Below, piece after piece: positions 26,772-59,606 of a stretch of DNA of 64,000 nt. The notes beneath the pieces are model-generated. The model did not search any database. It saw nothing but the letters and a program-made list of their open reading frames with translations, and had not been told where the DNA came from. A program made the translations under genes and the position numbers. This stretch comes from a bacterium (GTDB taxonomy: Bacteria; SAR324; NAC60-12). Every line of letters begins with the position of its first letter. Within the stretch, counting starts at the first letter, position 1. The stretch lies in NCBI GenBank assembly GCA_965205865.1, contig CBDBHR010000028.1, positions 32,001 through 96,000 on the forward strand. The letters run 5' to 3'.

Positions 26772-27354
26772 GTGCGCCAGGAAAGCTGGCAAGAAATAGA
26801 GAGTGAAAGTCTCTTACTCGGTAAGGCAGTAACGACCCGCCGAGTCCCCGAGTCATGAGTGGTTATTCGCAAGGATAGGCGCTAAGCGTTGACAGGGGAG
26901 AACATAGGCTCGGTATTGAGCTCCGAAATCATAGTTTCAGGCGCTGACCTTGTGGTCTGGTGGGGAAAGCAATATCAACCGAAGGCCTTAGCGTGAGTCT
27001 CGGCTGAGCCTGGCGGAGTCAAAGACCCGGTGCATGTGTGGAAGTTTCTTGATCGGAACCTGGGAGATCCTGAAGACGACTGTCAACATTCTATTGGTAG
27101 TCGGATCGGGAAAATTAATAAATAACCCCGATATCTACGTCTTCAGGAAGTCGGACAAGTTCGTAGTAGCGATGAAGCGGCGAACAATGAGATCATTTGC
27201 AGAGAGCGGTTTAAGCAGAGTGCGCCAAACGGCAACGTTTGAGCGTCTGACTCGAAGCAGGAGCCGGATGCGTTAGCAGCGCACGTCCGGATCTGTACTG
27301 GAGGAATGACGAAAGGTGGCTGGAAACCACTATAAGTCAGTTCTTTACGGTGAC
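26772..27354 (+). mobile_element. ORF-less group II intron (583 nt)
   Basis: 5' GTGCG; domain V GAGCCGGATGCGTTAGCAGCGCACGTCCGGATCT; 3' end TACGGTGAC; flanks rejoin to the repeat seen at 33047. Confidence 0.85.
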
Positions 27355-43463: not shown

Positions 43464-43555
<92 letters not shown>

Positions 43556-46561: not shown

Positions 46562-46750
46562 TTCTTCTCCTCTCATTTTAAAACTCACTTTCCCGGTATT
46601 TTGCGTTTTCCGCTCGTGTTTGGATAACTTCGTCCCACTGTCCCGCATCATATATCACACGGTTTTTTTTGATTTGACTTGAAAATAAGCTTAGCTTATC
46701 TATCAAAGAAAGCAACGCAATGGAAGAAAATATTATTTCAGAAAAGATGC

Positions 46751-49700
46751 ATGCCCAGAATCTTCGACAACATTGAACAAAAGCTCCGCCCCGTATTGGT
46801 GGAGACCATCAATGCGGCTGACCGGGCCGACTTTTGCGTCGGGTATTTCAATCTTCGTGGCTGGCGCTTGATCGATGAGCAGGTGGAGAAATGGGAAGGA
46901 GGCGAGGGCCGTTGCTGTCGTATCCTTGCCGGCATGCAACGGCTACCGCACGAGGAATTTCAAATGGCCAGCAGGTTCTCCGACGGCCAACCTTCTCTCG
47001 ACAATCAGACGGCACTGCGGCTCAAAAAAAGACTCGCGGAAGAATTTCGAGAGCAATTGACCACCGGCGCGCCCAGTAATGAGGACGAAAAGGGCCTGCA
47101 ACGACTGGCGCGACAACTCGAGGCAAAGAAGGTCGTGGTCAAGTTATTCCTCAAACACACGCTTCATGCCAAGCTCTACCTCCTCTTTCGCTCCGATCCG
47201 ATCAATCCGATCGTGGCATATTTGGGAAGCAGCAATCTCACCCAAGCAGGGCTCTCTCGTCAGGGTGAACTCAACGTCGACGTGCTCGATCATGACGCTT
47301 GTCAGAAGCTTGCCGGGTGGTTTGAAGATCGCTGGAACGAGCATTGGTGCGTCGATATCTCGCAAGAGCTTATTAAAATCATCAAGGAGAGTTGGGCGCG
47401 TGAGGAACTGATTCCCCCCTACCAGATTTACCTTAAGATCGCCTATCACCTCTCACAGGAAGCAAGGGCGGGTCTGTCTGAATTTCGCATTCCCAAAGAT
47501 TTCGGTAACAAGTTGCTCGAGTACCAGACCGCTGCGGTCAAAATCGCAGCGCATCACCTGAACAAACGAGGGGGCGTCATCATTGGTGACGTCGTCGGGC
47601 TGGGAAAAACGCTGATGGCCACCGCCCTGGCCCGCGTGTTTGAAGACGACCATGGATATGAGACGCTGATCATTTGCCCCAAGAATTTGGTTCCGATGTG
47701 GCAGGATTACAGCCAGCAATACCGTATGCGAGCTCATGTGCTGTCGATCAGCCAGGTCATCAACAAACTGCCTGACCTGCGCCGCTATCGACTGGTCCTC
47801 ATCGACGAAAGTCATAATCTGAGAAACCGCGAAGGCAGGCGCTACCGGGCAATTCAGGAATACATCCGGGAAAATGACAGCAAGTGCATCTTGCTCTCGG
47901 CGACACCATACAATAAAACCTATGCGGATCTGTCCAGCCAGCTTCGACTGTTCGTGCCTGAACATGAAAACCTGGGACTTCGTCCCGAACGATTGTTACG
48001 TGACATCGGAGAAACGGAGTTTCATGCCAGGCATCAAGCGCCAGTCCGCTCTCTGGCTGCGTTCGAGCAATCCAATTACGCAGATGACTGGAGAGAACTG
48101 ATGCGTTTGTATCTCGTCCGCCGCACACGCAGCTTCATTCAGGAGAACTATGCCACTACGGACGAGACCAATGGGCGAAAATACCTGACCTTTGAAGACG
48201 GTACGCGGTTCTATTTTCCGACCCGGATTCCAAAGACGGTCCGATTCCACGTCGATGAGCAATACTCCCGGCTGTTCGCAGACGACGTAGTGGAGGCCAT
48301 AAACGGCCTGCAACTGCCGCGCTATGGTTTGGGAAATTATCTCCTTTCGAATCCACGAACGCTTCCCACTGATAACGAGAAGAAGATTCTCGATGACCTC
48401 TCACGCGCCGGTAAACGTCTCATGGGTTTTTGCCGCACCAACCTGTTCAAACGTCTGGAGAGCAGCGGTCACTCCTTTCTGCTGTCGCTCGAACGCCATA
48501 TCCTGCGGAATTACATCTTTCTCCACGCGATCGAGAACGATCTTTCGCTTCCAATCGGCAGCACCAATGCCGGGCTTCTGGATACGCATTCCTTTGACGG
48601 GGACGCGGAAAGGACCACCAGAGATATTTTCGATATGGATGAGGATGATGAAAACGAAGAACCCAAAGCAACGACGAATCTGAAAACCGGGGATGAATTT
48701 CGCCATCATGCCGCTGAAGCCTACGCGCTCTTTGTCGATAAATACAAAAAGCGATTCCGCTGGTTGGCGCCGCATTACTTCGATAAGGAGTTCGGCAAAG
48801 ACCTCATGACTGACGCCACTATTCTCAGTAAACTCCTGCTCCGATTCGGCGAATGGCAGGCGGACCGGGATGCGAAACTCGACGCGCTGGAAAAAATACT
48901 CGTCGAAGAACATCCCATACGCAAAGTGCTCGTCTTCAGCCAGTTCGCCGATACGATACACTACCTGGAAAGACGGCTTCAGGAGCGTGGAGTAACGGAC
49001 CTGGCTGCGGTGACCGGAGACTCTGCGAACCTGACGGAATTGGCATGGCGTTTCAGTCCCAAGAGCAACGGAAAAGAAAATCGCATAGCATCTGACAATG
49101 AACTTCGCATTTTGATCGCCACCGACGTGCTCAGCGAAGGACAGAATTTGCAGGACTGCGCCATTGTGGTGAACTATGACCTGCCGTGGGCCATCATCCG
49201 CCTCATTCAACGCGTTGGTCGCGTGGACCGCATAGGCCAGAAAGCGGAAAATATCCTCTGCTGTTCCTTTCTTCCGGCTGAAGGTGTCGATCGCCTGATC
49301 CGTCTGCGGGAGCGAGTCCGGAAACGTCTCCACCAGAATGCCGAGGTGGTGGGAACGGATGAGGCCTTTTTTGAGGATGAGGACCAACAGAACGTGCTTG
49401 ATCTGTATAATGAAAAGGCTGGAATTCTGGATAATGACGCCGAGACGGACGTCGATCTTTCCTCCTATGCCTATCAAATCTGGCGCAACGCGACGGAAAA
49501 GGATTCATCGCTCAGGAAGATAATCGAGGAAATGCCCTCGGTCGTGTATACCTCGAAGGCATACGAGCAGAAGCCGGAACGGCCCGCAGGAGCGCTGGTC
49601 TATATAAAGACTGCGCAGGGAAACGACGCGCTTACCTGGGTTGACCGCAATGGCAATAGCGTCACCGAGAGCCAGTTCGAAATTCTCCGCGCGGCGGAAT

Positions 49701-50086
49701 GCGCGCCCGGTACCCCGGCCTTGCCTCGTCACCTCGTTCACCATCATCAGGAAAAACAGGTCGGTGGCCAACTCGGCCGCCCCGCGGGAGCCCGCTTCCG
49801 CACTTACGAGCGACTGAAGCAACACGCTGAACGGGTCAAAGACACGTTGTTCGATACCAAGTCCTTGCATCGCGCGATCGAGGATATCTATCGCTATCCT
49901 CTACGCCAGGCCGCGGTGGATGCGCTCAACCGTCAGTTGCGCAGTGGGGTTTCCGACGAAGCTCTTGGCGAATTGGTCGTCACCCTTCGGGATGAAGGTC
50001 GCCTTTGCATTGTCCATGACGAAGACGAACACCAGGAATTGCGCATCATCTGCTCCATGGGACTGACTGAAAAGAACGGGAACTGA
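46751..50086 (+). CDS. PLD-nuclease / SNF2-like helicase fusion
   Basis: LHAKLY..GSSNLT, GDVVGLGKT, IDESHN, SATP, QRVGRVDRIGQ. Confidence 0.9.
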   Translation: MPRIFDNIEQKLRPVLVETINAADRADFCVGYFNLRGWRLIDEQVEKWEGGEGRCCRILAGMQRLPHEEFQMASRFSDGQPSLDNQTALRLKKRLAEEFREQLTTGAPSNEDEKGLQRLARQLEAKKVVVKLFLKHTLHAKLYLLFRSDPINPIVAYLGSSNLTQAGLSRQGELNVDVLDHDACQKLAGWFEDRWNEHWCVDISQELIKIIKESWAREELIPPYQIYLKIAYHLSQEARAGLSEFRIPKDFGNKLLEYQTAAVKIAAHHLNKRGGVIIGDVVGLGKTLMATALARVFEDDHGYETLIICPKNLVPMWQDYSQQYRMRAHVLSISQVINKLPDLRRYRLVLIDESHNLRNREGRRYRAIQEYIRENDSKCILLSATPYNKTYADLSSQLRLFVPEHENLGLRPERLLRDIGETEFHARHQAPVRSLAAFEQSNYADDWRELMRLYLVRRTRSFIQENYATTDETNGRKYLTFEDGTRFYFPTRIPKTVRFHVDEQYSRLFADDVVEAINGLQLPRYGLGNYLLSNPRTLPTDNEKKILDDLSRAGKRLMGFCRTNLFKRLESSGHSFLLSLERHILRNYIFLHAIENDLSLPIGSTNAGLLDTHSFDGDAERTTRDIFDMDEDDENEEPKATTNLKTGDEFRHHAAEAYALFVDKYKKRFRWLAPHYFDKEFGKDLMTDATILSKLLLRFGEWQADRDAKLDALEKILVEEHPIRKVLVFSQFADTIHYLERRLQERGVTDLAAVTGDSANLTELAWRFSPKSNGKENRIASDNELRILIATDVLSEGQNLQDCAIVVNYDLPWAIIRLIQRVGRVDRIGQKAENILCCSFLPAEGVDRLIRLRERVRKRLHQNAEVVGTDEAFFEDEDQQNVLDLYNEKAGILDNDAETDVDLSSYAYQIWRNATEKDSSLRKIIEEMPSVVYTSKAYEQKPERPAGALVYIKTAQGNDALTWVDRNGNSVTESQFEILRAAECAPGTPALPRHLVHHHQEKQVGGQLGRPAGARFRTYERLKQHAERVKDTLFDTKSLHRAIEDIYRYPLRQAAVDALNRQLRSGVSDEALGELVVTLRDEGRLCIVHDEDEHQELRIICSMGLTEKNGN

Positions 50087-50087
50087 A

Positions 50088-53000
50088 ATGCCATCACCTT
50101 TCGACCGTAATAAAGTCAGAAAATATCTGCAGGATTTCACTCTCCAATCCCTGTTCATTTGTGAACTCGGCTGGGAGCACGGTGGCGTGGATGCGGAAGT
50201 CTCAGTCGCCGGCGAGACCTTTGCTCTCCAAGCCATTGCCCACAAACGCGGCATGGTCGCCTACCAGTGCATTGCAGAGACCGAAAATACTTTCCCCGAT
50301 TATCCCACTAGGCAGAAGATCGAAAAAGCCGTGGCAAAGATCGTCCACGAGCACATTATCGTCTACGTCTCACACGACCGGAACAGGCACTACTGGCAAT
50401 GGGTGAAGCGTCAACCCGGCCATCCCGGCAGAACGCGCCAGCACACCTATAGATCGGGACAAGCGGGAGAAGCGTTGATTCAAAAGCTGGAGCAAATCGC
50501 CTTCACCTTTGAAGAAGAAGAGAAGCTGACCCTCGTCGACGTATCGGGCCGAGTGCGGGCCGCCTTCGACGTCGAGAAGGTGACCAGGAAATTCTACGAC
50601 CGGTTCAAAAAAGAACACGACGTATTTCTACGATTCATCGAAGGAATCGAGAACGTGGCCGACCGTGCATGGTACGCCTCGCTCATGCTGAACCGCATGA
50701 TGTTCATCTACTTCATTCAGAAAAGGGGGTTTCTCGACAGCGACCCGCACTATTTGAGCAACCGTCTGCAACGCATGCAAACTGAGCAGGGTAGGGACCG
50801 CTTTCAGACTTTCTATCGCTTGTTCCTGTTGCGACTGTTCCACGAGGGACTGGGCCAACCCGAAACCGACCGTTCACCTGAATTAGTGGAACTGCTCGGC
50901 CAAGTCCCATACCTCAATGGCGGTTTGTTCGACGTCCACGATTTGGAGCGCGACAACCCGCAGATACATATCCCCGACATGGCCTTTGCCACCATTTTCG
51001 ACTTCTTCGACGCCTACCAGTGGCATCTCGACGACCGCCCGTTGCGCAACGACAACGAGATCAACCCCGACGTGCTCGGCTATATCTTCGAGAAATACAT
51101 CAACCAGAAGCAGATGGGGGCCTACTACACCAAGGAGGACATCACAGGCTATATCAGCCGCAACACCGTCATTCCCTTCCTTTTCGACCAAGCCGGAAAG
51201 CACTGTCCCATCGCATTCCAACCAGGCGGGGGCGTATGGCGATTGTTGTCGGGCGACCCGGACCGCTATTTTTATGAAGCGGTCCGCCACGGCATCAGCT
51301 ACGATATTCACACAAATGAAGAACTTGCGGACAGGCGCGAACTACCGCCGGAAATTGCCGCCGGGTTGCACGACGTCTCGAAACGAAGCGGTTGGAACAA
51401 GGCGGCTTCACGAGATTTTGCCCTGCCGACGGAGACCTGGCGCGAGCACGTCTCCCGTCGCCAGCACTATGAAACAGTTCACGACAGACTGTCCGCGGGA
51501 GTGGTCTCTTCGATCAACGAACTGATCACCTACAACCTGGACGTCGAGCAATTCGCCCGGGACGTGGTCACCTTAAGCGAGGGGCCCGAACTGGTGCGCG
51601 CCTTCTGGAAGACGCTCAACACGGTCTCCATCCTCGACCCGACTTGTGGTTCCGGCGCCTTCCTATTCGCCGCGCTCAACATCCTGGAGCCCTTGTACTT
51701 CGCCTGTCTGGCCGCAATGCGAGGATTCCTCGACGACCTTGAACGCTCCGGACGCAAGCACCACCCTGAGAAACTGAACGATTTCCGCAAGGTGCTGCAA
51801 CAGGTAGACGCTCATTCCAGCGAATCCTACTTCATTCTAAAATCCATCATCGTCGATAACCTCTATGGCGTGGACATCATGGCAGAGGCCGTGGAAATCT
51901 GCAAATTGCGGCTCTTCCTCAAGCTCGTCGCGCAATTGGAAAGTTACGAGCAGATCGAGCCACTGCCGGACGTCGACTTCAACGTCCGCGCCGGCAACAC
52001 CCTCGTCGGCTTCACTTCCCTGGAGAAGATACGGGAAGCCCTCACCATAACCAGCGACGGTCAACGAAGAATTCTCTATCCTGAGGATGAAGCCGAACTG
52101 CGTCGCCTCGAAGAGGACGCTGAAATCGCCGATCGCGCCTTCCACCGTTTCCGCGAAATGCAAACCGGACACGATATGGATGCCAGCGAATTTTCTGTCG
52201 CCAAATTGGAATTGAGAAAACGGTTGGATGGACTGCGCGAAGAGTTGAACCGCTACTTGGCGAGGGAATACGGTGTGGAGTCCACCGACAAAATTGCCTA
52301 CAAACAATGGCGGGACAGCCACCAACCTTTCCACTGGTTCGTTGAATTTTATGGAATTATGAGCAGCGGTGGTTTTGACGTGATTATCGGCAATCCACCG
52401 TATGTTGCAACGGGAAAGATTCGCAAATCCTACTCGGTGAGGAATATGGAAACTGAGGGCTGCCCCGACGTTTATGCTTGGATACTGGAGCGTACGGCAA
52501 ACCTGCTTAGCGACAAGGGACGTTCCGGAAAGATCGTACCGTTGAGCCTCGGCTTCAGTTCCCAGTTTGATGTTTGCCGAAAATTCCTATTTCGTCATTA
52601 CGAGCAAAATTGGTTCTCATCCTTTGGCAGAATCCCCGATGCTCTATTCAGTTTTAACGTCCGGGTCCGTAATACCGTTCATCTCGGGCACAGATCGGCT
52701 GATCCAAGAGTCTCCTATTCTACGCGCCTCCATCGCTGGTACAAGGAAGCGCGTGCACTGCTATTTGACAACATCCAGTACGTTCGTTTTCAGCCTAAAC
52801 TATGGGATCACCGCGTACCCAAACTGAATACGCAACCGCTTGCACAAGCCTTTGAATCGGCTCTTGAGCGCGGAAAGACGCTGGAACTCACTTTGCAACG
52901 CGTGACAAATCACAAACTGTACTTCAAGCAGACCGCCTACAATTGGCTTACCGTTTGTCGTATACTTCCCCCCTGTTACGAAGGAATGCAACAAGTTCCT

Positions 53001-53405
53001 CACTCGAAGGTAGCGGATCTTTACTTTGTGGATGCCAACACTCGTGAGCTTGCGATGCTGCTCGCGAGTGGCAAGCTGATGTTGGTTTTTTGGCTCGTGA
53101 TTGGTGACGATTTTGATGTAACGAGATCGAACCTCGCTAATTTTCCCGTGGACTTTGCCAGCTTACCCGAAACGACAAAGAAAAGCCTTTTGTCTATTTT
53201 GCCAGACTTGGAATCTGCTATGTCGGCTTCCATTCAGTACAAGGTGAATGCAGGCCTGCGCGTCGGTACATATAACTTGGCGAAATGTCGGCATGTGACT
53301 GACCTGAGCGATGCGCTGTTTGCATCGGCAATAGGATTCGACAACGTATTGGAGGACATTGATCTATACTACACCCAAGCGATAAAAACCGATTTTGGCA
53401 AATAA
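50088..53405 (+). CDS. Eco57I-like N6-adenine DNA methyltransferase with TRD
   Basis: PYLNGGLF, GAYYT, ILDPTCGSGAFL, LYGVDI, FDVIIGNPPY. Confidence 0.9.
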   Translation: MPSPFDRNKVRKYLQDFTLQSLFICELGWEHGGVDAEVSVAGETFALQAIAHKRGMVAYQCIAETENTFPDYPTRQKIEKAVAKIVHEHIIVYVSHDRNRHYWQWVKRQPGHPGRTRQHTYRSGQAGEALIQKLEQIAFTFEEEEKLTLVDVSGRVRAAFDVEKVTRKFYDRFKKEHDVFLRFIEGIENVADRAWYASLMLNRMMFIYFIQKRGFLDSDPHYLSNRLQRMQTEQGRDRFQTFYRLFLLRLFHEGLGQPETDRSPELVELLGQVPYLNGGLFDVHDLERDNPQIHIPDMAFATIFDFFDAYQWHLDDRPLRNDNEINPDVLGYIFEKYINQKQMGAYYTKEDITGYISRNTVIPFLFDQAGKHCPIAFQPGGGVWRLLSGDPDRYFYEAVRHGISYDIHTNEELADRRELPPEIAAGLHDVSKRSGWNKAASRDFALPTETWREHVSRRQHYETVHDRLSAGVVSSINELITYNLDVEQFARDVVTLSEGPELVRAFWKTLNTVSILDPTCGSGAFLFAALNILEPLYFACLAAMRGFLDDLERSGRKHHPEKLNDFRKVLQQVDAHSSESYFILKSIIVDNLYGVDIMAEAVEICKLRLFLKLVAQLESYEQIEPLPDVDFNVRAGNTLVGFTSLEKIREALTITSDGQRRILYPEDEAELRRLEEDAEIADRAFHRFREMQTGHDMDASEFSVAKLELRKRLDGLREELNRYLAREYGVESTDKIAYKQWRDSHQPFHWFVEFYGIMSSGGFDVIIGNPPYVATGKIRKSYSVRNMETEGCPDVYAWILERTANLLSDKGRSGKIVPLSLGFSSQFDVCRKFLFRHYEQNWFSSFGRIPDALFSFNVRVRNTVHLGHRSADPRVSYSTRLHRWYKEARALLFDNIQYVRFQPKLWDHRVPKLNTQPLAQAFESALERGKTLELTLQRVTNHKLYFKQTAYNWLTVCRILPPCYEGMQQVPHSKVADLYFVDANTRELAMLLASGKLMLVFWLVIGDDFDVTRSNLANFPVDFASLPETTKKSLLSILPDLESAMSASIQYKVNAGLRVGTYNLAKCRHVTDLSDALFASAIGFDNVLEDIDLYYTQAIKTDFGK

Positions 53406-53704: not shown

Positions 53705-55105
53705 ATGACAGAATTTTTCAGATTCAGAAGTATAGAACAGTTGCTAGGAGATAAATACCAGGAGCTTGAAAGGCTAACTATCTACTTCGCCAGTCCTGAG
53801 GAACTCAATGATCCCATGGAAGGTTTCCGGGACATTGTGTGGAGCGGAGACAAAATTGTCTGGACCAATCTTTTCAAACATTACGTTCACTGCCTTTTTT
53901 TGACATATGTTAATTTTCAAGTAATTGGGGACACTACCGATTTGAAAGTCGTCGGCATCCCAATTTGGGGACGGTGGGATGAACCACTAAGCCCTCAAGC
54001 AAAAATTCAGTTTGATAACATCTGGGATAGGGTCTTCAATAAATGCGGACTAAGTAGACTCATTGAGAAAATAGTGAATATGAAGCGCAAAGTCAGACAC
54101 AATGAGCTACTGATTTATCTCTGGCCTATACATATTGATGTTGTGTTAGAAATCCAAGCAGAACTTGTTAAGCATGGTCTATTAACAGAATTAAAACTTC
54201 CACCACTTGGAAAATTACCCAGCGTAAAACAGTTTAACAAGATTTGTTTCTTTGAATCAATGGGACAGATTTAAGACAAAGAACTCATTGAAGTTTTCTC
54301 TTTATTTTCTCAATTAGTGTATCAATTAAAAATTGAGATGCGGCTTGTTTATAACAAAAATCGTACAATTGCTCCAGGAGTTCTAGAAAAGAACATGCAA
54401 CGGGTGTTAATCGATTTTCTCGAGATGTATGTGAAACGAATCGAGATCCTGCTTTGGCCCCAATGGTACACTGCTTGTTTTATGGGAAACTACCACAACT
54501 CGTCCGCATGGGGGCATTACGGAGGTGGCCATAAAGGCGTGTGTTTGATCTTTGAGGCTGTAGAATCGGATAAATCAAACAGCTTGGCATTGGATGGTTC
54601 CCCGAGGACTTTCTATGAGGTCAAATATGTGGAGAAAGCAGCTGAGATTTACTTCTTTCGGTCTATTGGTACGCTGCCAGAAGCCAAGCTGATGAATTTA
54701 TGGTATAGCGATCAAGATGGTAATCTCAGTGAATGTGGCAACCATATTGGAAAGGATGGTGACATTGACTCATGGAGGAAAAGCTATTGGGACGACTTTT
54801 ACGACTCAATCAGCATTAAAACCAAAGATTGGAACTATGAGCAAGAGCACCGGTTGATCTTAGATGGTCTACTCGGAAATCTCGAGAAAACGCAACGAGC
54901 CCTGAACTACGATTTCAACTCGTTGAAAGGTATTATTTTTGGAATGAGAACATCCGAAGAGGATAAGTTGAGAATTATTGAAATAATTAAACGGAAGTGC
55001 ATGGAAGAGAACCGTATTGACTTCAAGTTTTTTCAGGCCGACTACTCTCATGAGAGTGGCGACTTTCGCAAATATGAGATTTCTCAGATGTTTTCTGGTA
55101 CATAA
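53705..55105 (+). pseudogene. DUF2971-like protein with in-frame TAA at 54272
   Basis: FASPEELNDPMEG...WGHYGGGHKGVCLIF...KTKDWNYEQEHR; both halves in the same frame. Confidence 0.75.
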
Positions 55106-55291: not shown

Positions 55292-56218
55292 ATGCTGGTA
55301 TTTGACCTATTCTCGAAACGCCAAAAGAAACTTCGAGGGGATATCCCTGACGTCTATGTTTATGACGATTTGCCTGATCCTCTTAGAGTAAAAATTGTAC
55401 AAATCTGGTTGAAGACTCTTGGCAATGAACAACAAGCTATGTATGGAAATTATGTTTACGAACAAATAGTAGAAATCCTAAGGCATGAATATGGTGTTTT
55501 TCAATTACCAGTTACAAAAATGACTCCTCAGAACGCTTGTCAAGAGTTTGTAAATTTCTTCCTCCAAGAGAATGATATCGAAAAGGCTCTTGATGCAGTA
55601 GAGTTGTCATTTCGTTTAATAGATGGACCTACGAGAGAGTGGCAATACCTAAAACGACATGACGCTTCAGAAAAAGCAGATGACGCAATAGAAGAATTAA
55701 ATTACAGGTTCAGGGAGCATGGCATTGGTTATCAATTTTCGAATGGACAAATTATTCGCATGGATTCCGAGTTGATTCATGCCGAAATTGTTAAGCCTGC
55801 TCTCGAGTTGCTCAACCAACGTTACTATGCCGGAGCACAACAGGAGTTTTTGAAAGCGCACGAACACTAACGGAAGGGGAACGCGAAAGAAGCACTCAAT
55901 GAGTGTCTCAAAGCGTTCGAGAGTATAATAAAGGCAATTTGCGATAAGAGAGGCTGGAAAAATTTTAAAAAAGCAGCAGCAAAAGACTTAATAGAGGTGT
56001 GTTTTGACAACGACTTGATCCCATCGTTTTGGCAATCGCACTATTCATCCTTGAGAAATATTTTGGAGAGTAGTGTACCTACCGGTCGCAACAAGTTGAG
56101 TGGGCACGGTCAAGGTACAACTCCGGTATCCGTGCCAAATCACCTTGTTGCGTACATGTTGCACATGACGGCATCAGCTATTGTATTTCTGGCTGAAGCC
56201 GAAGAAAAATATCCATGA
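55292..56218 (+). pseudogene. STM4504/CBY_0614-like (AbiJ-N-terminal related) protein with in-frame TAA at 55868
   Basis: DLFSKRQK...EFLKAHEH*RKGNAKEALNECLKAFES...GRNKLSGHGQG. Confidence 0.75.
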
Positions 56219-56515
56219 TGACAAGCATAGGCATTGTTGCTTAAATAAAGTCGATGAGAAAACCTTTCCTTGTCCTTCTTATGCTTTGCGGGATTCCAGA
56301 ATTTCCAATATAATTTTTAAAGCACATCAAATCAAATTTTCGGTCACGTGATTGTCGAAGCGGGAGGCTCCGACCGGCTTCAGGGAATGCAAACAGTTTG
56401 GGTCAACAAGAGTTAACGACCGACGGTTACATTTTCCTTGACATCAACCGTCCATATGTTGCCTGGGCAACCTATCGAAGCGTGCTTATAACTCCCCCGA
56501 ATATAAAATAAGGAG

Positions 56516-57435
56516 TTGAGTCCGGCACAAAAAAGGAAGCTGTCCGATGTTTTGCGAGTCAAGGATGAAGGAGAGGCAGTCGCAGAGACACTTGAGAAGC
56601 GCATCAGCGGGGGCGGGCACTGCCCTCATTGCAAGCATAATCAATTTCAAAGGTGGGGAATATCACACGGGATGCAACGCTACCGTTGTAAAAGCTGCCT
56701 GAAGACCTTCAACGCAGCCACGGGGACCCCCGCGCGCCTGCGGAAAAAGGAGAAGTGGTTGGAGTATTCCAAGGCGATGGTTAACGGCCTGAGTGTCCGC
56801 AAGGTGGCCAGAAAATGCGGGATCGACAACAGCACCAGTTTCCGGTGGCGTCACCGTTTCCTGCATGGCTTGAGGGACAAGAAGGACAGCAGCCTCAAGG
56901 GGATAGTCGAGACCGACGAGACCTTCTTCCTGGAGTCGTTCAAAGGTTCGCGGAACCTGGGGCGCACAGCTCGCAATAGGGGCGGCAAGGCCACGAAGCG
57001 GGGGTTGTCGGCGGAGCAAATCCCGGTTCTGATCGCAAGGGACCGCCACGGAGAGATGACGGACGAAGTGCTGAAAGACCTCAGCGAAGTCTCGATCACC
57101 AAAGTGCTCAAGCCTGTCTTGGCACAGGATGCGGTCCTTTGCACGGACGGGAACAAATTTTATCAGGCATTCGTGGACACTGAGAACATCGCGCATGTCC
57201 GGCTGATCGCCTCCAACGAAAGCAGGGTCATTGACAAGGTCTATCACATTCAAAATGTCAACGCATATGACAGCCGTTTAAAAGGCTGGATGCGCCGATT
57301 CAATGGGGTTGCAACAAAATACTTCCCGAATTACTTGGGATGGAGGCGATGCCTTGAAAAACAGGGAAATTCAATCGCAGCGGTGACCTATCTCCATTGT
57401 GCTTTGGAGTGACAAATACTAAACGCAAATAGAGC
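56516..57435 (+). mobile_element. IS1595-family transposase (56516-57412) with right end
   Basis: CPHC..RYRCKSC Zn ribbon, VETDETF, LCTDG, HIQNVNAY.SRLK. Confidence 0.88.
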
Positions 57436-57525
57436 AAAAAGATTGATTCTGATAATAGGATTTGCTAATATTCAGTATCTATTAAGTTACCGGACTGTAC
57501 AAATACAAGCACATCAAAATAAATG

Positions 57526-57553
57526 TTGACAGAATCGAATTATGGGCTATACT
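57526..57553 (+). promoter_or_regulatory. Sigma70-type promoter
   Basis: TTGACA-16 nt-TATACT; RBS GGAGG before ATG 57596. Confidence 0.7.
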
Positions 57554-57595
57554 GCTCATTTAATGTAATTAATTTAAATTCACGATGGAGGGAGC

Positions 57596-58051
57596 ATGAA
57601 CACTGATCAAATCATCAAAGAAAACAAGAATCTAAAAAATCTGGTAAAATTTTATGAAGACGATATTGAAGCTCATAAGATTCTCTTTGAGAAATATATG
57701 GATCTTCTTGAGAAATATAAAATAATTTTTATTGAAGAAGAAATTATAGATATTGAAGTCAAAAAGGACAAAATTACAAATATCAAAAAGAAAAGGCCAG
57801 TACCTTCTGGGATCCATTCATATTTAAAGGAACATGGAGGACCAGCTACAATTGAAGAAATTAGACAAGAATTAGTTCAAAAAGGAATTGGAAAATGGAA
57901 GGATGAGAATACTGGAAACCGAGCAGTTAACATGTCCACCTCTCGAAATAAAAATTTTAAACTCATCTCAGACAATAAAGATATCAAACTTAAAAAATAT
58001 GCACTGGTAGAATGTGAGGATGAAAATGAGAACGTGAATAAGGAAAGCTAG
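57596..58051 (+). CDS. AT-rich hypothetical protein, possible coiled coil plus winged-HTH
   Basis: Clean ORF with RBS; YLKEHGGPATIEEIRQELVQKG resembles a wHTH start. Confidence 0.6.
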   Translation: MNTDQIIKENKNLKNLVKFYEDDIEAHKILFEKYMDLLEKYKIIFIEEEIIDIEVKKDKITNIKKKRPVPSGIHSYLKEHGGPATIEEIRQELVQKGIGKWKDENTGNRAVNMSTSRNKNFKLISDNKDIKLKKYALVECEDENENVNKES

Positions 58052-58179
58052 CGTTATTCCTTATTCACGAAAAATTATATTTAACTTCAACCTCAAACAA
58101 AGGATATCTCAATGTGGAAGAAAAGAAGATAATCAGTTCGGCCTTTCTACTGAAAAGATGAAAGGTCGAACCAAAAAAC

Positions 58180-58264
58180 GAAGAGCATCGCAACATGGTT
58201 GTTGCTACTGATTGAAAATCAGATGATACTGCAGAGTTATAGGGTTCGATTCCCTTGCTCTCCG
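58180..58264 (+). tRNA. Non-canonical (8/4) allo-tRNA-like gene, anticodon GAA, Ser-type body
   Basis: 8-bp acceptor, 6-bp D stem with TGGT loop, loop TTGAAAA, long variable arm, 4-bp T stem, discriminator G. Confidence 0.72.
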
Positions 58265-58284
58265 TATCTTTAAATAATGTAAGA

Positions 58285-58356
58285 GATAGGATAAGCAAAA
58301 GGTTACGGAACTGGACTGACACTTCAGATCAGTGGGTTCGAATCCCACTCCCCAGA
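58285..58356 (+). tRNA. Degenerate tRNA-Val(GAC)-like gene
   Basis: CTGGA-CTGACAC-TTCAG and GTGGG-TTCGAAT-CCCAC intact; acceptor and D arms mispaired. Confidence 0.55.
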
Positions 58357-58443
58357 AAATACAATACGGCAACGGACGTTTTGTTTCATGGTAGCATGCC
58401 GATTTGCTTCGCAACTCACCGCACATAAGACGTAAGACGAGAG

Positions 58444-58915
58444 ATGGCGCTCGAGGAGGTTCGAGTTCAACAATTCCCTGAGAGAGTATCACGGTTAAAC
58501 GGGATATTTTGTTTCCCGGACAGCGAGGTTGCAACCGACGTTGCTCATCATTGGGGAGGCCACTTTAAGATAGAGAACCTGGCTGAGGTCAATCTTCTCG
58601 AGGCTAAAGGAAGAGATCGGTTGGATTCCAACTGGATTACCTACGCTGGCTCCAATAAAGTTCTCCCTTCGGATGCGTGGATACCGCGTTATTGGCGAGG
58701 AGAACCCTATCCTGGCAAAAAGCCAATTTGGGAAACGCTTGTCGAAGGCAAATTAACGGTACTTGGTACAGATCTTCGTAAGCAGGCATACGAAATTGTG
58801 AGAGCTAATTGGCCTGATAGCTTCATGTTTTCAGAAATCTCCCGGCTAGGTGCTTGGGTCGGCTCGGACATCGGAAGCATGAGTGTTTTCATGGCAGAGG
58901 ATATGGAAAGTAAGG
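58444..58915 (+). pseudogene. Hypothetical protein fragment (DUF2441-like)
   Basis: LEEVR..QFPE.VSRL.GIFCF motif; 3' end cut by IS remnant. Confidence 0.45.
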
Positions 58916-59264
58916 AGATTTCCTGACCTTTTTTACTATGACCCGCTGCTCCGCTCCAGAAAGAATCGATGCCATAGCTCTTCTTGCCACTTTTGGAGAT
59001 AAAAGAACAATCAATGGCGGCGATCTTCTGGTGAGGGGAGGGAATGGTTTCTTCGATGAGACGATGGTTAAACTCAGCAAAATCGAAGGACTTGCGAAAA
59101 TAGCGTAAGCAGGTCATTTCGCTCAAATCACTGTAACGACTGAGGTTGCGCAAGTTCATTCTGCCTCTCAAAACGATGATCGTTGAAAAAAGGATCATCA
59201 AAAATTTCTTCTGAGGTCTCGAAACGTTGGACATTTGCGATAGAATTCGATCAACTATGCTCAT
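58905..59264 (-). mobile_element. DDE transposase N-terminal fragment (IS701/IS4-like)
   Basis: GRMNLRNLSRY...AIDCSFISKSGKKSYG...WSG. Confidence 0.7.
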
Positions 59265-59606
59265 AGAGTACTCCTGGGTTGAAATGAAAATTTCGTATGG
59301 AAACAAAATTCTCTCAACCCGGTGTGCTCTTGTCCAATCTTTTCTTATCTCATGCAAAAACTGTTAGAACTATTGTCTCGAGGTATTGGTAAGCTATTGT
59401 TTCGAAAGTATTGCCCGAATCTCTCCTGCTCTCAAAGCGCCTGAAACAAAGGCTCAACGAAATCGAGACCCATGGGCTCGCCTCACTTTAGTCGTAGGCT
59501 GTTTTGCGTGTCATTTTCACCTCCTTTCTCAGGCATGTTGTTAACCAGTTTCAGCAGCTTTCACCGCAATCCCAAGGGCTCGCCCAAGGATTCGTTTCAC
59601 TATGCA

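Follow-up and report, generated by a model that had tools for sequence, protein, structure and literature searches.

In a 64,000-nucleotide stretch of a bacterial genome from the SAR324 lineage (NAC60-12; contig CBDBHR010000028.1, positions 32,001 to 96,000 of the forward strand, hereafter the window) stands a tRNA gene, at 58180-58264 on the plus strand, whose anticodon and body appear to disagree about the amino acid it should carry. The question raised by this locus is whether such a gene encodes an active, mistranslating adaptor, an odd but correct tRNA, an RNA with another role, or the leftover of a mobile array. The initial annotation had proposed an allo-tRNA of the 8/4 type with a selenocysteine tRNA (tRNA-Sec)-like D arm, a serine-type body and a phenylalanine anticodon (GAA), situated in a defence island. 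The locus is a genuine tRNA gene of the lineage that comprises the (8/4) allo-tRNAs and the 8/4 tRNA-Ser of phages and tRNA arrays, and the proposed fold and class are both right. With moderate confidence, we read it as a stranded member of this lineage that would still be transcribed from the promoter of an upstream open reading frame (ORF151) and would serve as a weak or inactive adaptor.

Fold and kinship of the tRNA gene

The acceptor stem is 8 bp long, with the 5' strand GAAGAGCA (58180-58187) facing the 3' strand UGCUCUCC (58256-58263) in seven Watson-Crick pairs and one mismatch, A2 (58181) against C71 (58262). A UC linker leads to a D arm of the Sec and allo-tRNA type (GCAACA-UGGU-UGUUGC, 58190-58205), in which all six stem pairs are perfect and closed by a UGGU tetraloop (sub-fold -7.5 kcal/mol), and a single U (58206) precedes the anticodon arm ACUGA-UUGAAAA-UCAGA (58207-58223). 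The anticodon stem, which is not lengthened, has four Watson-Crick pairs (G30-C40 is present), then the mismatch A58207·A58223 (pair 27-43), then U·U; its loop presents U33, the anticodon G34-A35-A36 (58214-58216) and A37. A variable region of 17 nt (58224-58240), AU-rich and with at most about three contiguous pairs, is followed by the T arm AGGG-UUCGAUU-CCCU (58241-58255), with a 4-bp stem and a canonical loop, such that acceptor and T stem together form a 12-bp branch split 8/4. The gene ends with the discriminator G73 (58264), followed by UAUC; CCA is not encoded. The parse given by the initial annotation is reproduced base for base.

The minimum free energy (MFE) fold of the 87-mer is the same cloverleaf (-25.6 kcal/mol, z = -2.25; 6 of 200 shuffles as good), and ARAGORN, one of the checks that had been proposed, calls a tRNA-Phe(gaa) at 58179-58265. 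The 8/4 split is the better reading because a 7/5 split needs a U·U pair atop the T stem. A ninth acceptor pair, C58179-G58264, is possible and is used in the Rfam alignment, but it is taken as coincidental because base -1 varies freely among the relatives.

A chance cloverleaf picked up by a tRNA finder is barely tenable as an explanation. Some colour is lent to it by two other odd ARAGORN calls in the genome, a tRNA-Pro(cgg) of 89 nt with a poor acceptor stem (G000:C29:633713-633801) and a tRNA-Ala(agc) of 72 nt (G000:C30:913280-913351), neither of which has an Rfam match at E <= 0.1 and both of which are probably false positives. In contrast, ARAGORN calls nothing in 3000 dinucleotide shuffles of the 126-nt locus studied here and nothing in 20 shuffled copies of the 64-kb window, the Rfam tRNA-Sec model (RF01852) matches the gene at 46.1 bits (E = 9.4e-8; gathering threshold 47), and its 3'-most 24 nt are the same as those of phage 8/4 tRNA-Ser genes, a homology that refutes a chance origin. 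As a separate observation, a weak group II intron domain match lies about 680 nt from the odd tRNA-Pro(cgg) call.

The tRNA-Sec score cannot itself be taken as proof of a Sec-like shape. Ordinary long-arm tRNAs in 45 genomes of the same family also reach 44-48 bits on this model, and all 20 of the matches retrieved from relatives are canonical (15 tRNA-Ser(tga) and five tRNA-Leu(taa)). The informative point is the combination: on the general tRNA model (RF00005) the window tRNA stays below the 29-bit threshold, while the host tRNA-Ser(cga) (43468-43555) scores 56.8 bits, and yet the site passes as Sec-like. The true tRNA-Sec of the genome lies at C25:194730-194828 and scores 64.3 bits. In a 12-Mb genome of the same family, five matches of 80-81 nt to the tRNA-Sec model occur within 6 kb (G006:C418:458-6151), perhaps as a tRNA array or as repeats of a tRNA-like element.

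The pattern used to collect relatives placed an 11-base T-loop motif between two sets of six acceptor bases and left bases 1, 2, 71 and 72 free. It matched 38 loci (2 viral, 13 from genomes and 23 from metagenomes) with 32 distinct sequences; homology to the allo-tRNA class is judged by these 38 loci, and the published members were compared by description. The start GGAGAGCA and the motif UGCUCU occur in 38 of 38 loci, all begin with GG, and most end in UGCUCUCC-G, and hence have G73. The closest relative overall is a tRNA-Ser(cga) of a viral tRNA cluster (L170), identical at 70 of 88 positions (79.5%). The 3'-terminal 24 nt are identical in L170 and L187, and the T arm is that of L170, L171 and L187. 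ARAGORN called 29 of the 38 loci (27 Ser, one Asn at L173 and one Leu at L199), while our own parse of the distinct sequences assigned Ser anticodons (GCU, UGA, CGA) to 26 and other anticodons (GUU, GAU, AAG, UAC and, twice, UUA) to six. At 26 of the 38 loci the retrieved stretch has 3-23 tRNA genes, and these loci are phage tRNA clusters and the long tRNA arrays of Chryseobacterium, Chitinophagaceae, Wocania, Tumidithrix and other genomes. Long tRNA arrays are described as spreading by horizontal transfer (Santamaria-Gomez et al. 2021, PMC8421152).

In an alignment of 33 rows, consisting of the window tRNA and the 32 distinct relatives, the RNAalifold consensus has an 8-bp acceptor and a 4-bp T stem. 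Paired cells make up 96.6% of the pairing positions. Shuffling gives 81.8 ± 1.0%, with 0 of 500 shuffles as high as the real alignment, and sliding the 3' partners gives no more than 60.2%. Six acceptor pairs are fixed by the search pattern and therefore carry no evidential weight in the covariation count; the informative pairs are the five of the anticodon stem and the two outer pairs of the T stem, and all of them covary (the outer T-stem pair is AU in 18 sequences, GC in 9 and UA in 2). The base 5' of the T stem, counted by eye, is U or C in 11 of the 33 sequences, the window tRNA included, and only the 8/4 reading works for these 11 because U or C cannot pair with the U that follows the T stem. 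Most of the 11 have long Sec-like D stems, such as CUAGCC-UGGU-GGCUAG in L190. The initial annotation had suggested collecting homologs and testing covariation, allowing that they might prove to be canonical 7/5 tRNA-Ser; they are 8/4.

Other searches added little to this family. A looser T-loop pattern found eight further phage sequences of the 8/4 tRNA-Ser(UGA) type, all with G2 and none above 56 identical positions. A pattern of TGGT, TTGAAAA and the T loop gave more than 117 matches in viral contigs, but all 99 that ARAGORN called are ordinary tRNA-Ser(tga), which matched because CUUGAAA followed by A mimics the motif; a stricter version, with the loop flanked by R and Y, returned a single match that is not a tRNA. 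Two patterns anchored on the D loop or the anticodon arm were likewise rejected, one giving no loci and the other 17 unrelated loci (called tRNA-Gln twice and nothing 15 times by ARAGORN) that look like tmRNA 3' ends or other tRNA-like sequences. Comparison with phage and plasmid collections by blastn gave matches only of the size of the T arm.

Within the host lineage the gene stands alone. There is no DNA match to it in 60 other related genomes, and a covariance model (R1) built from the family, with the window copy in the training set, was run on 88 genomes of the phylum including the host and scored the window copy at 65.1 bits and nothing in the 87 others above 52.9; the best other matches checked were canonical 7/5 tRNA-Ser in 11 of 11 cases. 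Local GC is 0.29-0.41, compared to 0.44-0.51 for the contigs, and the host tRNAs that were drawn mostly encode CCA, unlike this one. Because such a gene is missing from the other 87 genomes, the local GC is low and CCA is not encoded, the gene is, as judged from these comparisons, foreign to the host lineage and horizontally acquired. A search for a clean empty site in a genome of the same genus (G001) found none; the flanks are 44 kb apart there, and the Opp genes have dozens of paralogs.

Condition of the copy and its amino-acid identity

What sets the window copy apart from its family is the state of two structures that make a serine tRNA. Pair 2-71 is GC in 32 of the 33 aligned members and A·C only here. 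The variable region has the length of a Ser-type long arm (17 nt), but its helix is nearly absent (-0.2 kcal/mol), whereas the arm is folded in 31 of 32 relatives; 30 of the 32 have sub-folds of -2.0 to -9.9 kcal/mol, L189 has 0.0 and L192 has -6.0. The whole molecule, at -24.3 kcal/mol, ties with L173 for the weakest MFE of the 33, the range extending to -43.1. [quoted passage not shown] With the 2-71 pair broken and the variable-arm helix nearly absent, two of the features that make a tRNA-Ser are damaged, and it is the loss of this conserved pair and this helix that suggests a weak or inactive adaptor, one that would be charged poorly and may lack function. The "Ser body" of the initial annotation therefore stands for the acceptor and T arm, which are homologous to those of the 8/4 tRNA-Ser lineage, and fails for the broken G2:C71 pair and the almost helix-free variable arm. 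Its caveat that the mismatches could mean decay is the half of its reading with the better support; A2·C71 is unique in the family, and A27·A43 is an ordinary feature.

The same body also has features of a phenylalanine tRNA. The elements given as critical for E. coli phenylalanyl-tRNA synthetase (PheRS) are G34, A35, A36, U20 and U59 (PMC9976931), and all five are present in the window tRNA (a U follows G18-G19 in the UGGU D loop, and U59-U60 lie in UUCGAUU), but with G73 in the place of the A73 of tRNA-Phe. Determinants for both seryl-tRNA synthetase (SerRS) and PheRS would thus be combined in one molecule, and it is possible that serine is inserted for phenylalanine.

Such mistranslation was the central expectation of the initial annotation. 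An active missense allo-tRNA would be matured, SerRS would charge it by way of its Ser-type acceptor, long variable region and G73, EF-Tu would accept its 12-bp branch, and it would place serine at UUC and UUU codons; the mistranslation might be toxic or regulatory and perhaps used by the island or a mobile element. We consider this unlikely, though it draws on several observations. The architecture is that of the (8/4) allo-tRNAs, G73 and G30-C40 are in place, the decoding loop is intact, non-Ser anticodons occur in 6 of the 32 distinct relatives, and the genome has one PolyA_pol-family enzyme (n = 1) as a candidate for adding CCA. Published members with Leu anticodons are reported to put serine efficiently at CUC and UUA codons in E. 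coli, where their induction arrested growth (PMC5389517), and one 8/4 allo-tRNA for a Phe codon has been reported, in metagenomes (PMC5389517; PMC7609411). However, G2:C71 is broken in this copy alone, the stable helix is missing from what is described as the main SerRS determinant (PMC9976931), and six allo-tRNA(UAU) species with destabilised stems are reported to have given no suppression in E. coli (PMC5389517). The host also has, besides the four canonical tRNA-Ser genes that were drawn, two canonical tRNA-Phe(GAA) genes, with A73 and a short variable loop, which would compete for the same codons. We infer that the gene is at most a low-level reader of UUC and UUU and not a dedicated mistranslation or defence device.

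If PheRS instead read GAA together with U20 and U59, the gene would be a supernumerary, odd tRNA-Phe that decodes UUC and UUU correctly and harmlessly. The five PheRS elements argue for this, and the weakened serine identity may let PheRS win the competition. We nevertheless hold it improbable: both host tRNA-Phe genes have A73 where this one has G73, PheRS would have to accept a long variable region and 8/4 geometry, and a pyrimidine at position 20 is described as general to the allo-tRNAs (PMC5389517) and is hence no sign of adaptation to PheRS.

The GAA anticodon may have been acquired through the anticodon switching typical of allo-tRNAs, as the relatives themselves illustrate. In a long tRNA array of Chryseobacterium populi, the family member at L173:7406-7490 has the anticodon loop UUGUUAU (GUU, Asn), and its counterparts in two other Chryseobacterium species (L176, L178) are Ser(GCU) with the rest of the body almost unchanged, which is a natural anticodon switch within the 8/4 family. 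Alternatively, as a conjecture, a single change of G35 to A in an 8/4 tRNA-Ser(GGA) ancestor would give GAA. No family member with a GGA anticodon was found among the relatives; arrays L190 and L197 do have Ser(gga) genes, but these are of canonical form and not related to the 8/4 family. Other non-Ser members on metagenome contigs are well formed, with anticodons AAG (L199:734-916), UUA, which reads a stop codon (L202:2825-2912 and L203:1713-1800), UAC (L201:1614-1701) and GAU (L187:89-173). The AAG member is adjoined by a second tRNA of 90 nt, which ARAGORN calls Asp(atc). A further tRNA call in this material, with a CUA (amber) anticodon and labelled Pyl (L186:6583-6654, Ga0114968_10005616), lies about 5 kb from a phage-like tRNA cluster with an 8/4 tRNA-Ser(GCU).

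Several observations weigh against a weak or inactive adaptor. Apart from the two damaged features, the molecule is well kept: the D arm, the T arm, U33, the A36-A37-A38 context and G18-G19 are intact, and a long-dead pseudogene would be expected to carry hits in the D arm, T arm and loops as well. Acceptor stems can tolerate an A·C pair, and A27·A43 is not a defect because such mismatches are common in the family (pair 27-43 is unpaired in 8 of 33 members). The well-formed state of the relatives with non-Ser anticodons (L187, L199, L201 and L202/203) and the efficiency of serine insertion by the Leu-anticodon allo-tRNAs count in the same direction. So does the sequence in other samples. A word search with a 2-kb stretch found it in the runs of 10 studies, and contigs of four runs were compared. 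Those of X4 (kind not on record; 57979-58415) and X17 (guessed RNA; 57969-58279) have 0 differences, which makes the sequence identical in contigs of two other studies. The contigs of X14 (kind not on record; 57517-58516) have 19 differences and 7 gaps, and among the differences listed 11 fall in 57555-58002 (within the 486 nt upstream) and none in 58003-58294. This pattern could be constraint, and a recombination boundary would look alike. Those of X18, a metatranscriptome labelled as sponge metagenome (58142-58371), have 3 differences, one of them listed at 58295. Since the same form recurs in the contigs of other runs, neither A2·C71 nor GAA is an assembly error; the samples holding the stretch are probably of the same or a sister species and hence not independent.

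Surroundings and transcription

The defence-island setting claimed for the gene is borne out. Upstream of it lie genes for an HKD-Snf2 helicase (46679-50086), a type IIG restriction-modification enzyme (50088-53405) and a DUF2971/PDC-S31 protein (54317-55105), followed by an STM4504/CBY_0614 (AbiJ-NTD4, DUF7014) gene that is split in two open reading frames (55292-55870 and 55997-56218, profile positions 1-171 and 215-281) and is a broken gene of the island. A functional tie is another matter: nothing links the tRNA to these defence genes, an insertion sequence (IS) of the IS1595 family intervenes, and the patch is full of broken genes. Conserved linkage to defence genes is likewise lacking, and no counterpart of ORF151 or of the downstream ORF160 was found near the tRNA of any relative, which speaks against the use of an active missense tRNA by the island. 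The IS1595 copy (56511-57435), one of six in the genome that are 93-100% identical, ends 745 bp upstream of the tRNA, and the idea that the tRNA is its cargo was rejected, as the five other copies end at the equivalent of 57435-57445. Loose contig ends at 57435 in runs X4 and X18 represent other insertion contexts of IS1595.

Downstream, some 16-27 nt after the gene, a second tRNA-like 3' fragment (58292-58363, plus strand) consists of an anticodon-arm-like hairpin with the loop CUGACAC and a perfect T arm (GUGGG-UUCGAAU-CCCAC, 58332-58348); it lacks both a D arm and a 5' acceptor strand to match. Rfam gives only weak matches (Tymo_tRNA-like, 17 bits; tmRNA 3' part, 14.3 bits), its fold has z = +0.41, its likeness to other tRNAs is confined to the T arm, and it is unlike the host tRNA-Val(gac). 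Next comes ORF160 (58444-58926), the N-terminal 160 aa of proteins of about 208-280 aa, at 44-83% identity, most of which have PF10386 (DUF2441). ORF160 itself also matches phrog_5663, and its truncation lies close to an IS701-like fragment of the minus strand (58707-59357). In run X14 the ORF160 stretch occurs in at least three diverged variants. The truncated second tRNA, the IS1595 copy, the truncation of ORF160, the IS701-like fragment and the split STM4504/AbiJ-NTD4 gene are all signs of a decaying neighbourhood. Elsewhere in the window, at 26806-27028, a group II intron D1-D4 domain (165.7 bits on RF02005) is unrelated to the tRNA.

ORF151 (57596-58051, plus strand) is a low-GC orphan that is preceded by GGAGGG and ends 128 nt upstream of the tRNA. 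It has no relatives beyond its own cluster, a phmmer search against PDB sequences returned nothing meaningful, and its only profile hints, both below cut-off, are to winged-helix domains (TFIIE_beta, E = 0.005; HARE-HTH, E = 0.1). The sigma-70-like promoter TTGACA-16 nt-TATACT, with 11 of 12 matches, lies ahead of it at 57526-57553 and is the only strong plus-strand promoter-like site upstream of the tRNA; none was found between 58052 and 58179. The lack of a promoter of its own is a further point against an active missense tRNA. ORF151 and the tRNA are probably co-transcribed, and the simplest account of transcription is probably read-through from the ORF151 promoter. Between them lie a 12-bp hairpin over the ORF151 stop codon and, 8 nt upstream of the tRNA in the fold of 58100-58380, a second hairpin (58136-58171) with a 12-bp outer stem followed by an A-run rather than a U-run.

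Contigs from RNA-labelled runs include the gene, and that of X17 bridges the 3' end of ORF151 and the tRNA. While favourable to an active missense tRNA as to any reading that needs a transcript, this presence is a weak hint of transcription, as these are contigs and not reads, carry-over of DNA is possible and the RNA label of X17 is guessed. Parts of the 2-kb stretch are without contig cover in the RNA-labelled runs, from which nothing is drawn. Like X18, run X19 is labelled sponge metagenome.

The position behind ORF151 raises the prospect of a tRNA-like RNA that does not decode and serves instead to process or stabilise the ORF151 transcript at its 3' end (through RNase P or Z), as a regulatory RNA or as a recombination target. 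The missing promoter, the 128-nt distance with its two hairpins and the bridging contig are in keeping with it, and variant contigs of X14 have their starts or breaks at 58347-58352, within the neighbouring fragment's T loop, as at an attachment (att) or integration site. Mukai et al. (PMC5389517) have also proposed that irregular allo-tRNAs close to transposons and toxin-antitoxin genes have roles outside translation. Still, ORF151 is an orphan without a conserved partner RNA, every decoding feature of the anticodon loop is kept although a processing signal would have no need of it, and the breakpoints fall within the second fragment, outside the window tRNA. The chances of a non-decoding role are accordingly slim. 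More speculative again, and hardly probable, is a two-gene module in which a winged-helix-like ORF151 protein would be co-transcribed with a dual-identity (Ser/Phe) allo-tRNA that, when switched on by phage attack or translational stress for example, would insert serine at Phe codons across the proteome as an RNA toxin or abortive-infection effector of the defence island, with A2·C71 and the floppy arm tuning its charging low rather than marking decay.

A stranded array member that has become a weak or inactive adaptor would fit a simple history. An array or phage fragment may have landed in a variable region of the genome, and IS and other insertions may then have cut it up, which would leave one tRNA, plus half of its neighbour, on the margin of the defence island in a decaying patch that is rich in AT and riddled with IS elements, the tRNA being transcribed by read-through from the promoter of the orphan upstream. 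This suggests a route by which array tRNAs are stranded and their anticodons then drift or switch.

Comparison with known systems

Compared to the tRNAs of ordinary bacterial translation, the gene is a composite. With bacterial tRNA-Sec (selC) it shares an acceptor of 8 bp, a D arm of six pairs and four loop nucleotides, the long variable region and G73, and it differs in a T stem of 4 rather than 5 pairs, giving a 12-bp and not a 13-bp branch, and in GAA instead of UCA. Canonical bacterial tRNA-Ser, unlike it, is 7/5, with a short D stem and large D loop, G2-C71, a stable long variable arm and a Ser anticodon. Canonical tRNA-Phe is also 7/5 and has a short variable loop and A73, such that only the anticodon and U20/U59 agree.

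The closest published class is that of the (8/4) allo-tRNAs, which Mukai et al. (2017, PMC5389517) characterise by the 8/4 branch, a D arm resembling that of tRNA-Sec, a long variable arm and a discriminator that is G73 or U73. The window tRNA shares with the members described there the 12-bp branch split 8/4, the D arm, long-stemmed and capped by a tetraloop, a variable region of long-arm length, G73, a non-serine anticodon, a place beside transposases or in mobile DNA, and a near-miss of the tRNA-Sec covariance model. It differs in an anticodon stem that is not lengthened, longer ones being described for the class, in a variable arm almost without helix and in the A2·C71 mismatch. Its host phylum also lies outside the Clostridia, Proteobacteria and Acidobacteria listed there, unless SAR324 is counted among the old delta-proteobacteria. 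Within the class, the pseudogene-like allo-tRNA(UAU) of Edaphobacter strain C40 (PMC5389517) provides a parallel for its condition, with stem-destabilising changes and adjacent transposase genes, although the window tRNA has another anticodon, no overlap with a transposase reading frame and no five-stem junction.

It should be noted that allo-tRNAs, their kinship to phage 8/4 tRNA-Ser, their diverse anticodons, their association with transposons and the existence of destabilised, inactive copies are already in print (PMC5389517; PMC7609411). In a full-text search of the allo-tRNA literature, the matches listed, judged by title and the opening of the abstract, were mostly methodological and none was about defence islands. 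What is new is a rare copy with a Phe anticodon in a lineage that is marine and apparently associated with sponges, and not among the soil bacteria from which the class was described, together with a sequence link between a copy with a non-Ser anticodon and the 8/4 tRNA-Ser body of phage clusters and horizontally transferred arrays. Natural tRNAs whose amino-acid identity disagrees with their anticodon are few; allo-tRNAs are among them, and their biology is still speculative. An active gene would mean that phenylalanine is mistranslated as serine; the evidence leans to a weak or decaying copy, and the practical importance is then modest. With its combination of Ser and Phe determinants in one body, the gene would nonetheless be a simple natural substrate for identity competition.

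It is with the 8/4 tRNA-Ser of phages and tRNA arrays (PMC5389517, PMC8421152) that the likeness extends to the letters. The acceptor (G-AGAGCA/UGCUCUCC), T arm and G73 are nearly the same, base by base, as in L170, L171 and others, and the second-tRNA remnant lying downstream is in keeping with an array origin. The differences are those of a copy removed from its setting. Ser anticodons occur in 26 of the 32 relatives, G2:C71 in all of them and a folded variable arm in 31, and most of them stand in arrays of 3-23 tRNA genes, whereas here one and a half genes are left.

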